Shown here in pieces: positions 12,675 through 31,216 of a DNA stretch of 53,848 nt. The position numbers and the translations under genes are program-made. The notes under the pieces are model-generated. The model had not been told where the DNA came from, ran no database searches, and was given only the letters and a program-made list of their open reading frames with translations. This DNA comes from a virus. Lineage: Duplodnaviria > Caudoviricetes. Numbering within the stretch: position 1 is the first letter of the stretch; the number at the start of each line of letters is the position of its first letter. The stretch spans positions 1 through 53,848 of the IMG/VR virus record IMGVR_UViG_3300032829_000014; one strand, written 5' to 3'.

Positions 12675-12740
12675 TTATAAATTTTTTATATTATTATTTA
12701 ATATTTTCATTTGTTCTTCGTGTTCTAAAATTAATAGTTC
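12675..12740 (-). pseudogene. orphaned 3' end of the gene at 14006..14296 (ELLILEHEEQMKILNNNIKNL*)
   Basis: Ungapped match to KNLIKEHENLLIKLNNNL; its stop lies 3 nt before the next ATG (12671). Confidence 0.7.
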
Positions 12741-14022
12741 TGTAAAATTTTTTATTAATTACATTTTTTTCTTGCTTCTTCCTATCACTACTTTTTAGGG
12801 ATATTTCTATCTTGTCATCCATAGTTGGATAGTCCACAAGCTTAAATTCAGGCGAACTCAACCTTATTTTATTATTTAATTTATTTTCTTTAATATTTAA
12901 TATTCTTTTTCCTTCATTTAATATATTAACTGCTGCATTAATATCTCTATCATGAATAGTATTACAATTAGGACAAGTCCATGTTCTATCATTCAATTCA
13001 ATATCATTATTTTTATAATTACAACAATTACATAATTTACTTGATGGATAAAATTTATTTATTTCAATTATTTGTCTACCATACCAATTAGCCTTATATA
13101 TCAATTTTCTTTTAAATTCATACAATGATAACTCTTGTATTGATTTTGCTAATTTATGATTCTTTAACATATTACTTATACTTAAATCTTCCATTACTAT
13201 AACTTGATTTTCGTTTAGTAATTTATTTGTTACTTGATGTAAATAATTTTCTTTTTTATTATTTAATTTTTCATATGCTTTTGCTAATTTAATTCTTGCT
13301 TTATTTTTATTTTTACTTCCTTTAACTTTTCTACTTAATTGTTTATGTAATCTCTTTAATTTCTTTTCATTATTTTTTTTAATTTTAATGTTTTCAAATT
13401 TATTACCATTACTATCAATAATAAAATCTTTAATACCTAAATCAATACCAATAATATCATTTATTGATTTTGGTAATATTTTAGTTATTTCTTTATCAAT
13501 TAATATACTTAAAAAATATTTATTACTTTTTGTTTTTGTTAATGTTGCTGATTTAATATTTTTTCTATTTTTATTTAAATATTTTTCATCTTTTATTGAA
13601 CATTTAAAATGAATATTTTTTAATTTTTTAATTAATGTTATTCTATTACCTTTAAAAGCTTTTTTGCTTATTCCATTATAAGGAAATCTACAACTTTGTT
13701 TATTATCTTTTTTTGATTTAAATTTAGGAAATCCTGTTTTTTTAATAAAAAAATTATAATAAGCACTATTTAAATCTATTAATGATTGAGCAATAACTTT
13801 TGAGTGCATTTCATTTAACCAAGAATATTCTTCTTTTTGTTTTAAATTTGTTAAATATTTACCAAGTTCACCCCAAGAAACAGAATATTTATTTTTATTA
13901 TATTCTTCAATTTTATATGCTAAAAGATTATTATAAATAAATCTACATGAACCAAGTAATTTATTAATATAAATTATTTGATCAATATTAGGATAAATTC
14001 TTATTTTAATAGCTTTTAACAT
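12694..14022 (-). CDS. tnpB: TnpB RNA-guided nuclease (IS200/IS605 family), no adjacent TnpA
   Basis: N-terminal HTH (KAIKIRIYPN...LGSCRFIYN); RuvC GIDLGIKD, VMEDL, HDRDINAAVNI; Zn finger CNCC...CPNC. Confidence 0.95.
   Translation of the reverse strand: MLKAIKIRIYPNIDQIIYINKLLGSCRFIYNNLLAYKIEEYNKNKYSVSWGELGKYLTNLKQKEEYSWLNEMHSKVIAQSLIDLNSAYYNFFIKKTGFPKFKSKKDNKQSCRFPYNGISKKAFKGNRITLIKKLKNIHFKCSIKDEKYLNKNRKNIKSATLTKTKSNKYFLSILIDKEITKILPKSINDIIGIDLGIKDFIIDSNGNKFENIKIKKNNEKKLKRLHKQLSRKVKGSKNKNKARIKLAKAYEKLNNKKENYLHQVTNKLLNENQVIVMEDLSISNMLKNHKLAKSIQELSLYEFKRKLIYKANWYGRQIIEINKFYPSSKLCNCCNYKNNDIELNDRTWTCPNCNTIHDRDINAAVNILNEGKRILNIKENKLNNKIRLSSPEFKLVDYPTMDDKIEISLKSSDRKKQEKNVINKKFYRTINFRTRRTNENIK
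12717..12870 (-). ncRNA. predicted TnpB omegaRNA (scaffold plus ~20-nt guide); boundaries approximate
   Basis: GC-richer segment overlapping the tnpB 3' end; TGTAA/TTACA terminal stem then GAAC (12740-12737), which can pair with GTTC (12857-12854). Confidence 0.6.
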
Positions 14023-27652: not shown

Positions 27653-27793
27653 ATGAATAAAAATACTAATAAAGTAGATAATCTTAAGAATTCATTATCT
27701 ATTGAAGAAATTAAAAAATTAATTTATCAATTTAAGGAAGAAGAATTACCATATGCAGATGCACCTTTTCATTTTCAAGCTGAAATTTGGTCT
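27653..27793 (+). pseudogene. 5' part of a 60-aa ORF split by IS607
   Basis: MNKNT...FHFQAEIWS joins in frame to GMEEFIQWLETKK* after the element. Confidence 0.7.
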
Positions 27794-27845
27794 ATAAATT
27801 ATTTTTAATAAAAAATAGAAAATTATATCTTTTAATGAAAATTTT

Positions 27846-27860
27846 ACTATTTATAATAAA
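27846..27860 (+). promoter_or_regulatory. phage late-type motif inside the IS607 left end (ACTATTTATAATAAA)
   Basis: 14/15 match to the sheath motif; 15 nt upstream of tnpA. Confidence 0.55.
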
Positions 27861-27869
27861 TATTATTTT

Positions 27870-28439
27870 ATGCAAAATTATATAAAATTATCGGAATATG
27901 CAAGAAAAAAATCAATAACTTATAAAACAGCATGGAATCATTTTAAAAAAGGAATGATTGATGGTGCTTTTTTAGATAATACTAATCATGTGTTAATACC
28001 TATTAACAATAATTTAAATAATAATTGTATTATATATGCCAGAGTATCATCAAATGATAGAAAACAATCATTAATTGATCAACAAAAAAGATTGGAAGAA
28101 TTTGCAAATTTAAAAGGTTATAATATTGTTGGTTCATATAAAGAAATTGCTTCTGGTATGAATGATAAAAGAATTATTTTAAATAAAATATTAAATAATG
28201 ATGATTGGAATATACTTATTATTGAAAATAAAGATAGATTAACCAGATTTGGGTTTAATTATATTAAAACTTTATTAAATAAACAAAATAAAGAAATCAT
28301 TATACTTAATACTATAGATAATGATAAACAAGATTTAATGAAAGATTTAATATCAATATTCTATTCCTTTTCTGCCAGAATGTATGGCCTAAGAAGAAAA
28401 AAAAATAAACAAGATATAATTAAATTTATTGAAAATTAA
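27870..28439 (+). CDS. tnpA: IS607 serine-recombinase transposase
   Basis: N-terminal HTH, IYARVSS, EIASG, ENKDRLTRFGF, SFSARMYGLR. Confidence 0.93.
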   Translation: MQNYIKLSEYARKKSITYKTAWNHFKKGMIDGAFLDNTNHVLIPINNNLNNNCIIYARVSSNDRKQSLIDQQKRLEEFANLKGYNIVGSYKEIASGMNDKRIILNKILNNDDWNILIIENKDRLTRFGFNYIKTLLNKQNKEIIILNTIDNDKQDLMKDLISIFYSFSARMYGLRRKKNKQDIIKFIEN

Positions 28440-28448
28440 AAATAATTA

Positions 28449-29690
28449 TTGCAATTAGTTGAACAACATATTATAAAATCTAATAATCCTTTCTTTAAAG
28501 AATGTGATAATATTTGTTTTAAATCAAAAAATTTATATAATTCTTGTTTATATAATATCAGACAAGAATATATAAATAATAAAATAAATATTATTAATAA
28601 TTTATATCATATAATGAAAAATACTGATGAATATAAATCATTGCCAAGAAAAGTATCATCATCAGTATTATTAATGGTTCAAAAAAATTTTAAATCATTT
28701 TTTAATTCATTAAAAGAATATAATAAAAACTTAAATAAATTTAAAAATAGACCACATTTACCAAAATATTTGGATAAAATTGATGGAAGATATATGGTTT
28801 CATATACCAATCAAGCAATATCTAAAAAAATATTTAAAAAAGTTAATAAAATTAAATTATCACAATCTAATATTGAATTTAAAACAAAAATTAATGATTT
28901 TAATATTATAGATTGTATAAGAATAGTACCTAAAATAGGTTATTATGTTATTGAAATTGTTTATACTATTAAAGAAAAAGGATTATTAAATGATAATAAT
29001 CAATATTTAAGTATTGATATAGGATTAAATAATTTAGCTACATTAACAAGTAATAAAATTAATTTTGACCCAATAATTATAAATGGTAAGCCATTAAAAA
29101 ATATAAATCAATATTATAATAAAAAAAGATCAGATTTACAATCAATATTAAAAATTAGAAATAATAAAAATAATTCAAATAAATTAAATTTATTAACATT
29201 AAAAAGAAAAAATAAGATAGATAATTATTTACATAAAGCAAGTAAAAATATAATTAATATATGTAATGAAAATAATATAAATACGATAATAATAGGTAAA
29301 AATGATAATTGGAAACAAGATATAAATATAGGTAAAACAAATAATCAGAATTTTGTAAATATACCACATAGTAGATTTATAGAGATAATAAAGTATAAAT
29401 GCGAAATAAGTGGTATAAAATTTATAACTATAGAAGAAAGTTATACAAGTAAAGCAAGTTTTTTAGATTTAGATAAGATACCAAATTATAGTAAAAATAA
29501 TAAAACTAATTATAATTTTAATGGTAAAAGAATATCAAGAGGGTTATATAAAACTAATAAAGGTATAATTATAAATGCTGATGTAAATGGTAGTTATAAC
29601 ATATTAAGAAAAGCAATTCCAAAAGTATTTTCCAATGGGGTAGAGGGTGTTAGAGTACATCCAAAAATCATAAAAATTTTAAAGGGATAA
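28449..29690 (+). CDS. tnpB: IS607-associated TnpB (TTG start)
   Basis: SIDIGLNNL, IIIGKN..WKQ, EESYTSK, INADVNGSYNI. Confidence 0.93.
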   Translation: MQLVEQHIIKSNNPFFKECDNICFKSKNLYNSCLYNIRQEYINNKINIINNLYHIMKNTDEYKSLPRKVSSSVLLMVQKNFKSFFNSLKEYNKNLNKFKNRPHLPKYLDKIDGRYMVSYTNQAISKKIFKKVNKIKLSQSNIEFKTKINDFNIIDCIRIVPKIGYYVIEIVYTIKEKGLLNDNNQYLSIDIGLNNLATLTSNKINFDPIIINGKPLKNINQYYNKKRSDLQSILKIRNNKNNSNKLNLLTLKRKNKIDNYLHKASKNIINICNENNINTIIIGKNDNWKQDINIGKTNNQNFVNIPHSRFIEIIKYKCEISGIKFITIEESYTSKASFLDLDKIPNYSKNNKTNYNFNGKRISRGLYKTNKGIIINADVNGSYNILRKAIPKVFSNGVEGVRVHPKIIKILKG

Positions 29691-29710
29691 TATTATATAT
29701 TATTTCATAC

Positions 29711-30166: not shown

Positions 30167-30757
30167 ATGAGTTCTCAATCACAAGTAGGCCAAGATTTAT
30201 GGGCTTTAGAAGTATTAAAAAATAAAAAAAATGGATTTTTTATTGATATTGGAGCACATAATGGAGTATTTTTTAGTAATACATATATGTTTGAAAAAGA
30301 ATACGAATGGAATGGGTTAGCTATTGAAGCTGATCCTGTTTTATTTGAATCATTAAAGAAAAATAGAAATTGTATATGTATTAATAAAGCAATTACAAAT
30401 TATAATGGTAAATGTAAATTTGATGGTAAAATTTGTAATTCAAATAGTAGTATTGAAGTTGATGGAATAACATTAAGTGAATTGTTTAAGCAATATAATG
30501 TTCCTAAAGTTATTGATTATATATCTTTAGATATTGAAGGTGGAGAATATAATGCATTATTAGGTTTTCCATTTAATGAATATAAATTTTTAACATTAAC
30601 TGTTGAACATAATATATATAATGGAGATAAACAAAATTTAATAAATAAAGAAAAAATATTTGATTTATTAACAAATAATAATTATTTTCGTATAAAAAAT
30701 AATGTTGCTGATAATGGTAATGAATTTGAAGATTGGTATATTTTAAAAAATATATAA
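30167..30757 (+). CDS. FkbM-family methyltransferase
   Basis: SQVGQD, GFFIDIGAHNG..FSNT, IDYISLDIEGGE, TVEHN. Confidence 0.9.
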   Translation: MSSQSQVGQDLWALEVLKNKKNGFFIDIGAHNGVFFSNTYMFEKEYEWNGLAIEADPVLFESLKKNRNCICINKAITNYNGKCKFDGKICNSNSSIEVDGITLSELFKQYNVPKVIDYISLDIEGGEYNALLGFPFNEYKFLTLTVEHNIYNGDKQNLINKEKIFDLLTNNNYFRIKNNVADNGNEFEDWYILKNI

Positions 30758-30774
30758 TTTCTACTATAGTAGAT
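30756..30774 (+). CRISPR. solitary Cas12a (type V-A)-like repeat handle; not an array
   Basis: AATTTCTACTATAGTAGAT matches the AATTTCTACTnnnGTAGAT crRNA handle; intergenic. Confidence 0.6.
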
Positions 30775-30841
30775 AAGATTTTGATAATAAAATTATTTTA
30801 AAGAAAATTTACTAAATAATAAATAAATTAAAATAAAAAAC

Positions 30842-31216
30842 ATGAAAATAAACGTAGTTGAAGAAAAAGTTGATTTTGAAGAAAAGGAACTCGAAATTAA
30901 ATTTCCATTTTATTATCAAATGGAATTATCTAATGATGATGAATCTTATAAACATCTTTATACTAAAGTAACTGAAGATGGTAAAATAGTTAAAATTGTT
31001 GAAATTTGTCTTCATGATGAACATGAAATTTTTACTATTGATGTTGGTTATATTGATTTAGAAGATTTAGATTATGAAGATGAATTAAATCTTATTTTTC
31101 AAAATGAAAAAAATTTTGAATTGTCTGAAGAAGAATATAGTGAAATTGAAAATAGATTTTTAAATTTTGTTAATGAAAATTTTAAAAATAGTTTATTTGC
31201 TATTGGAACAAATTAA
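30842..31216 (+). CDS. acidic hypothetical protein
   Basis: ORF track. Confidence 0.7.
   Translation: MKINVVEEKVDFEEKELEIKFPFYYQMELSNDDESYKHLYTKVTEDGKIVKIVEICLHDEHEIFTIDVGYIDLEDLDYEDELNLIFQNEKNFELSEEEYSEIENRFLNFVNENFKNSLFAIGTN

Follow-up and report, generated by a model that had tools for sequence, protein, structure and literature searches.

The 3′ handle of a Cas12a repeat has the consensus AAUUUCUACU-(3-5 nt)-GUAGAU with a stem of 5 bp. It has reportedly been found by Fonfara et al. in 2016 and by Zetsche et al. in 2017 that Cas12a cuts its own crRNA from longer transcripts. Virus-borne mini-CRISPR arrays, whose spacers match related competing viruses, are said to take part in inter-virus conflict, as reportedly described by Medvedeva et al. 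in 2019. Solitary repeat units of phages, RacrVA1-3, were shown to inhibit the type V-A Cas12a of Moraxella bovoculi (Camara-Wilpert et al. 2023, PMC10651486). The study catalogued 2,103 viral solitary repeat units and describes RacrIC1 as being transcribed together with an acr gene in a bicistronic RNA. In CracrVA1, as described by Liu et al. (bioRxiv 10.1101/2024.10.29.618823), a phage psi-repeat is followed by a guide, Cas12a processes the RNA to a 19-nt handle plus about 21 nt, and the product acts as a guide that represses cas12a. Single-transcript Cas12a systems have also been described (PMC6576101). Thus, the general statement in the initial annotation of the present locus, that phage solitary repeats can act as RNA anti-CRISPRs, has experimentally proven precedents in the V-A class, namely RacrVA1-3 and CracrVA1.

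The locus is on a virus contig in IMG/VR that comprises 53,848 bases and is estimated to be 17% complete. The whole contig was analysed and is called the window below. As far as the Racr units are described in the source above, the window resembles them in having a putative solitary repeat mimic that is intergenic and is carried by a virus with no cas genes in the window. It differs from them in that only the 3′ 19-20 nt of a repeat are matched and no promoter is detectable. A Racr RNA is typically a small RNA, often made from a promoter of its own, that binds a Cas protein of the matching subtype in the host and inhibits interference. The SRUFinder program uses a coverage of at least 90% and a bit score of at least 41.1; in a comparison with one bacterial array alone (L051, see below), the window agrees with the repeat only over the 3′ 19-20 nt. 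The likeness to the Cracr element, as far as that element is described, is that a single psi-repeat limited to the handle is followed by a spacer-like stretch. However, a rho-independent terminator belongs to the Cracr element, whereas no terminator-like site is present in the window within 110 nt downstream of the handle. A Cracr spacer is further expected to match a promoter of a host cas or toxin gene, beside a PAM, over 9 or more PAM-proximal nt.

The 3′ part of the repeat of the type V-A array in L051 is the same as the window handle except for one loop base. In contrast to the 20 repeats and the cas genes in L051, the window contains a single unit, lacks cas genes, and shows unrelated sequence in place of the 5′ half of the repeat; by reading, the 17 nt upstream of the window handle do not resemble that half. 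The locus is also like a mini-CRISPR array in that a repeat and a spacer-like sequence occur on a virus without cas genes, but the only full match of the spacer-like sequence was found in a giant-virus-like contig.

The Handle and Its Surroundings

It was found that AATTTCTACTATAGTAGAT at positions 30756-30774 on the + strand matches the Cas12a crRNA handle at all 16 fixed positions and is the sole perfect copy in the window. The slightly longer TAATTTCTACTATAGTAGAT spans 30755-30774 on the same strand. The handle consensus with its 5-bp stem is present at this site, and the same consensus is visible in the L051 array. As the initial annotation had noted, the handle begins at the stop codon of the FkbM gene: the TAA at 30755-30757 terminates the ORF 30167-30757, and the last two bases of this TAA are the first two bases of the handle. 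The window has one match to the pattern AATTTCTACT-N3-5-GTAGAT, and none of 100 shuffles has any. The features of the locus are summarised in Table 1.

Table 1. Positions of the handle, its neighbours and other features discussed in the text (positions in the window unless another record is named)
Feature	Position	Strand	Remarks
Cas12a-type crRNA 5′ handle (psi-repeat)	30756..30774	+	AATT, 5-bp stem TCTAC/GTAGA, loop TATA, T
Spacer-like 23 nt after the handle (AAGATTTTGATAATAAAATTATT)	30775..30797	+	No credible target found
Intergenic gap holding the handle	30758..30841	+	84 nt; next ATG ORF starts at 30842
FkbM-family methyltransferase, upstream gene	30167..30757	+	Pfam PF05050 Methyltransf_21/FkbM, E 9e-16
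Acidic 124-aa protein (ORF124), downstream gene, co-directional	30842..31216	+	No relatives and no Acr similarity found
IS607-type insertion	27791..29710	+	Serine-recombinase (resolvase-type) TnpA 27870-28439; TnpB 28449-29690
Second TnpB	12694-14022	-	HTH_OrfB_IS605, OrfB_IS605 and Cas12f1-like TNB domains
Handle in 640-kb phage record (G029)	156925-156943	-	
Handle in 640-kb phage record (G029)	176029-176047	+	
Handle in 640-kb phage record (G029)	283032-283051	-	

The initial annotation had also reported that there is no cas gene and no convincing second repeat, and both statements agree with the present searches. When up to 2 mismatches were allowed, the forward pattern recovered only the site itself in the window, versus 3 matches of the reversed control. 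None of the repeat families in the window takes in the handle, and neither an array nor degenerate copies were found in the window. A search with TIGR04330 found no cas12a gene in the 53,848-base record. As in a solitary repeat unit, the handle is intergenic, lies on a mobile element, and has no partial repeat within 100 nt. Rfam gave no match at the handle. The 5-bp hairpin is part of the minimum free energy (MFE) fold, and the fold of the whole gap is not unusual in comparison with shuffles (z -1.27).

The gap had been called unusually long, which does not hold: 11 of the 15 gaps of at least 25 nt in the + strand block are at least 84 nt long. The handle had further been said to lie in the transcribed orientation. 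It is indeed on the same strand as both neighbours, so that this part of the claim stands, while transcription itself is expected from gene orientation only. Promoter-like sites are at background level (19 versus 21.5 in shuffles). TAnnTTTG, a promoter element of the Bacteroidota type, is not enriched in the gaps of the window, as 4 of 45 + strand occurrences are intergenic versus an intergenic share of 9.5%. The only terminator-like site is located at 30314-30336 inside the FkbM gene. The handle does not have the form of an intrinsic terminator, a G+C-rich stem followed by a T run. The small proteins encoded nearby were considered as Acr candidates, and neither a PDB sequence match at E <0.03 nor an informative Atlas match was obtained for them.

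The handle sits in an island of glycosyl- and methyltransferase genes. Upstream of it lies an IS607-type element. In the contig of one run (X2), position 27790 is followed immediately by 29711, and TCT is present at both junctions. Thus, the IS607 insertion is polymorphic. The IS-free form restores an ORF of about 60 aa that is interrupted by the element. With the second TnpB gene, which lies in the gene block of the - strand, two genes for relatives of Cas12 are present in this 54-kb fragment, which the initial annotation had missed. The handle was ruled out as a guide RNA of the IS607 TnpB because it lies 1,045 nt outside the element.

Expected Number of Chance Matches

A hand estimate had given 2e-4 chance matches per window, and Markov models of order 0-3 are in line with it, yielding 1.7e-4 to 5.1e-4 matches per window on both strands. 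For sites that are not wholly inside an ORF, the expectation falls to 3.3e-5 per window, since intergenic DNA makes up only 9.5% of the window and has a G+C content of 12%. Very many windows were scanned to reach this finding, and therefore a few chance matches outside ORFs are expected across the scan.

Handles in Other Viral and Bacterial Sequences

Base rates for perfect handles in viruses were taken from IMG/VR, which I searched with the general pattern and, as a control, with the same pattern reversed; the proportions among the matches listed are usable here, and the totals are not. Among the matches listed, 36 of 114 forward matches were inside ORFs of at least 100 codons versus 108 of 117 matches of the reversed control. 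After removal of duplicates, 85 of 117 listed forward matches and 6 of 86 listed control matches were outside ORFs. A terminator-like site within 110 nt was found for 48 of these 85 listed forward matches and for 0 of the 6 control matches. The IMG/VR samples are dominated by one dataset; when it was left out, 35 of 62 listed forward matches were outside ORFs, and 10 of these 35 had a terminator-like site. The commonest loop length among the listed matches outside ORFs was 4 nt (49 of 59). Judging from these samples, viral handles that are perfect and lie outside ORFs are more often real than due to chance, although the extent may differ in wetland phages.

As a solitary unit, the exact 19-mer was found in 44 viral stretches, which represent 11 sequence contexts. 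Several of the solitary 19-mers are flanked closely by an upstream promoter and, on the other side, by a terminator, and some directly follow a promoter of the form TTGACA-17-TATAAT. One common context accounts for 29 of the 44 viral stretches (L002, L003, L007-L009 and 24 more) and is also found in a Prevotella MAG (L060). It lies mostly on contigs of about 60-107 kb, and its elements are, in order, two hairpins ending in GAGCCA, the handle, a GAGCC-GGAA-GGCTC hairpin, and a strong terminator. From this arrangement, the context looks like that of a conserved small RNA with a Cas12a handle at its core. In L002, no tRNA was detected and no Rfam family was found at threshold. In another context (L005 2211-2332 and L044 3442-3555), a phage tRNA-Ile(tat) gene precedes the handle by 26 nt on the same strand, so that the two would be co-transcribed.

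Among 185,579 species genomes, the exact 19-mer was found in 21 stretches, once in each. An array with the TATA loop was not found among these genomes, and the one clear array (L051) has the consensus loop TATT. This array consists of 20 repeats with a spacing of 62-63 nt, adjacent to a gene that matches the Cas12a family and to ORFs of the sizes of Cas4 and Cas1, and the TATA loop occurs in 1 of the 20 repeats. Judged from the repeat spacing of 62-63 nt, its natural spacers are 26-27 nt long. In a Ruminococcus species, a unit of promoter, handle, spacer, and hairpin (4901-4919 in L046) is located about 382 nt upstream of a Cas12a gene (G026:C1:237301-241086). This unit fits the CreR autoregulatory element as it is described in bioRxiv 10.1101/2024.10.29.618823.

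I found three dispersed perfect handles with different loops in a 640-kb phage record that is rated complete (G029; Table 1), with a GC content of 0.26 at the locus. ATTATAT precedes two of them, and one begins within the TAA that ends an upstream ORF, like the handle in the window. A TAnnTTTG motif is located 6 nt before one of the handles, and downstream of one, within about 75 nt, there is a sequence that, by eye, resembles the start of a tRNA. A near match of this phage was not found among deposited phages. Its tail sheath indicates that it is unrelated to the window phage, although both are very large AT-rich phages with solitary handles. The three copies are far beyond chance, whereas the window shows a single copy in 17% of the genome.

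The Phage and Its Relatives

The G+C content of the window ranges from 18 to 27% and is about 20% overall. The window encodes a tail sheath protein of 910 aa (PF17482), whose best cultured relative is that of a Microcystis myovirus with 30% identity. In IMG/VR, 328 relatives of the tail sheath were found, the best with 76% identity. Among the related records searched, five are rated at least 90% complete and are 266-366 kb in size. Thus, the window is a fragment of a T4-like huge phage. The stretch is present in three wetland-metagenome DNA runs, and no RNA run is listed for it. Contigs of two other DNA runs are identical to the window to the letter across the handle site and are therefore uninformative on selection.

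A Shine-Dalgarno-like 4-mer at -16 to -4 was found for 2 of 71 genes, and the upstream regions are A-rich. The scarcity of such motifs suggests a host that may initiate translation without them, and Bacteroidota are the textbook case of hosts that do not rely on the Shine-Dalgarno motif. A Bacteroidetes host is an assumption, for which the 2 of 71 genes are the sole hint and weak evidence.

It was then asked whether relatives keep the handle and vary the spacer, as the initial annotation had suggested checking. None was found that does so: the locus is absent from 24 tail-sheath relatives and the motif from FkbM relatives. With up to 1 mismatch, none of the 24 records of related huge phages, of which 5 are complete, showed the handle pattern, and the reversed control gave 2 matches. 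The FkbM gene and ORF124 are both absent from all 24 records. ORF124 has no relatives in the viral or metagenome collections, and the relatives of the FkbM protein are at most 40% identical over long matches. In 127 further loci, among which are those of FkbM relatives, the handle was found in 0 of 127 with up to 1 mismatch; with up to 2 mismatches, 5 forward versus 6 control matches were obtained. A cas12a gene was found in 0 of the 24 related phage records by a profile search that was validated on 2 of 3 control genomes. Cas12a encoded by the phage itself was rejected because none is present in the window, which is 17% of the genome, or in the 24 relatives.

The Spacer-Like Sequence

The 23-mer that follows the handle occurs in the window at its own position and at one site with 3 mismatches. 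The 20-nt prefix of the 23-mer has 12 exact viral matches, which encode DFDNKI in frame. One of them extends to a 23/23 match after TTTC, a canonical PAM of Cas12a (10629-10651 in L435, also seen in L428), and the flanks diverge sharply on both sides. The two loci belong to a 377-kb viral contig that has 21.6% G+C over 21 kb and is as AT-rich as the window. The matched gene encodes a eukaryote-type fused topoisomerase II (best PDB E 7.5e-78 versus 3e-24 for bacterial enzymes), and its neighbours encode ankyrin, U-box, and serpin domains, which point to a giant-virus-like contig. Given the 12 DFDNKI-encoding 20-mer matches, a 23-mer with TTTV would arise by chance with a probability of about 0.03. 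A topoisomerase II gene of this type was found in 0 of the 24 relatives of the window phage. This site was rejected as a target because of the eukaryote-type gene, the giant-virus-like surroundings, the absence of such a gene from the 24 relatives, the longer natural spacers (26-27 nt) of the L051 array, and the chance of about 0.03; the 23/23 match is probably a coincidence. The other 11 20-mer matches, which likewise encode DFDNKI, were rejected as well, since neither the PAM nor the full 23 nt is present. Thus, the suggestion of a guide against a competitor, with TTTV-flanked protospacers as its expected sign, found no support beyond a single match in a giant-virus-like contig at a chance of about 0.03.

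A perfect inverted repeat of 14 nt connects 30780-30793 with 30907-30920 inside ORF124, 113 nt apart. The rough chance of such a 14-nt pair involving the 23-mer is below 0.01. The two complementary segments could pair within the mRNA. The site at 30907-30920 was rejected as a Cas12a self-target because the PAM-proximal (seed) end is mismatched and TTTV is missing.

Discussion

The window has a perfect Cas12a-type handle that lies outside ORFs in the sense orientation and is rare by chance. The observation is confirmed, and its interpretation is plausible but unproven. I tentatively favor the reading that the 19 nt are a genuine solitary mimic of a type V-A repeat, bound and processed by the Cas12a of the host and acting as a Racr-like decoy, and consider its probability to be just short of even. 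That the phage keeps the mimic in a strain-specific accessory island is part of the same reading and is put forward equally tentatively. The handle would be transcribed within a polycistronic mRNA of the FkbM gene and ORF124. A host Cas12a, if the host has one, would bind the 5-bp hairpin together with the AAUU 5′ part, cut just 5′ of A30756, and stay loaded with a phage intergenic guide. The loaded Cas12a would be withdrawn from the pool that carries phage-targeting crRNAs, and the phage RNA may inhibit interference in this manner as a Racr-like decoy or competitor.

The proposal of a host Cas12a that uses the RNA as a decoy or a guide was already made in the initial annotation. It fares well as to the sequence claim, the statistics, and the known class of such RNAs, and less well in that no relative carrying the locus was found, and no promoter or terminator at the handle. 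My estimate for the mimic is what it is because the low chance expectation and the favourable base rates are weighed against this lack of phage-specific support. A narrower version, in which a T4-like huge phage of wetlands has a Cas12a repeat mimic with no promoter or terminator embedded in a polycistronic mRNA, between two of its genes, seems rather unlikely. If the mimic is so embedded, the RNase activity of Cas12a would both cut the phage message and load an RNA chosen by the phage.

The handle may also be a product of chance, which has a probability below even and almost as high as that of the mimic: an AT-rich 14-nt palindrome (TCTACTATAGTAGA) would happen to follow the FkbM stop codon, with no CRISPR role and at most the function of a weak hairpin at the 3′ end of an mRNA. 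The locus was found only in the window phage when 24 related records and the FkbM relatives were searched; at the handle, there is no promoter, terminator, or second repeat; and the fold of the gap is ordinary. The finding was picked from a very large scan, and its only PAM-flanked "target" is implausible. The reversed control also has at least 117 matches in IMG/VR and is thus plentiful there, so that 16-base patterns of the handle's make-up are common overall. On the other hand, the expectation outside ORFs in the window is just 3.3e-5, and listed control matches are rare outside ORFs (6/86 versus 85/117 forward). The loop length, the preceding T, and the sense orientation also fit the real examples. 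If the match is nonetheless due to chance, it calls for caution, as scans of such size occasionally yield a sequence that fits a famous motif at all 16 positions, and context alone (relatives, host, RNA ends) decides such motif matches.

It is improbable that the RNA is instead a hijacking guide, like a Cracr RNA or a mini-CRISPR, in which Cas12a would use the 3′ 20-23 nt as a real guide. Its target could be the promoter of the host cas genes or another defence gene, repressed through a partial match, or a competing virus. CracrVA1, a single psi-repeat with a 21-nt guide, is a precedent as described in bioRxiv 10.1101/2024.10.29.618823, and the 23/23 match with a TTTC PAM in the 377-kb viral contig ends sharply on both sides. 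However, that contig is giant-virus-like and hardly a competitor within a bacterium, and a 23-mer with TTTV has a chance of about 0.03. Moreover, the spacers in the L051 array are longer (26-27 nt), and the handle lacks a terminator, unlike the described Cracr element. Less probable still is an inert relic, a repeat fragment captured together with the accessory island from another mobile element or a host array, which would neither give rise to a functional RNA nor be selected. Such an origin would accord with the limited extent of the match, as a repeat has 36 nt and no more than its 3′ 19-20 nt can be recognised here, and with the variable island beside the polymorphic IS607 element. But without selection at 12% GC, G or C should have been lost at some of the 4 positions, in contrast to the perfect match, and contigs of two other runs are identical across the handle.

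Decoys and guides of this type are both already described as Racr and Cracr, so that what would be new here is, at best, the habitat, the huge-phage carrier, and the position inside an operon. If the handle is a genuine repeat mimic, an environmental huge phage would join the phages that use RNA instead of protein against Cas12a. It would mean that an anti-Cas12a RNA can ride inside an ordinary mRNA. The handle would also aid the prediction of the host, which should carry a type V-A system. In the narrower version above, RNA anti-CRISPRs would no longer be limited to the phages in which they have been studied but would include environmental jumbo phages, and the phage would reveal an AT-rich wetland host lineage armed with type V-A.
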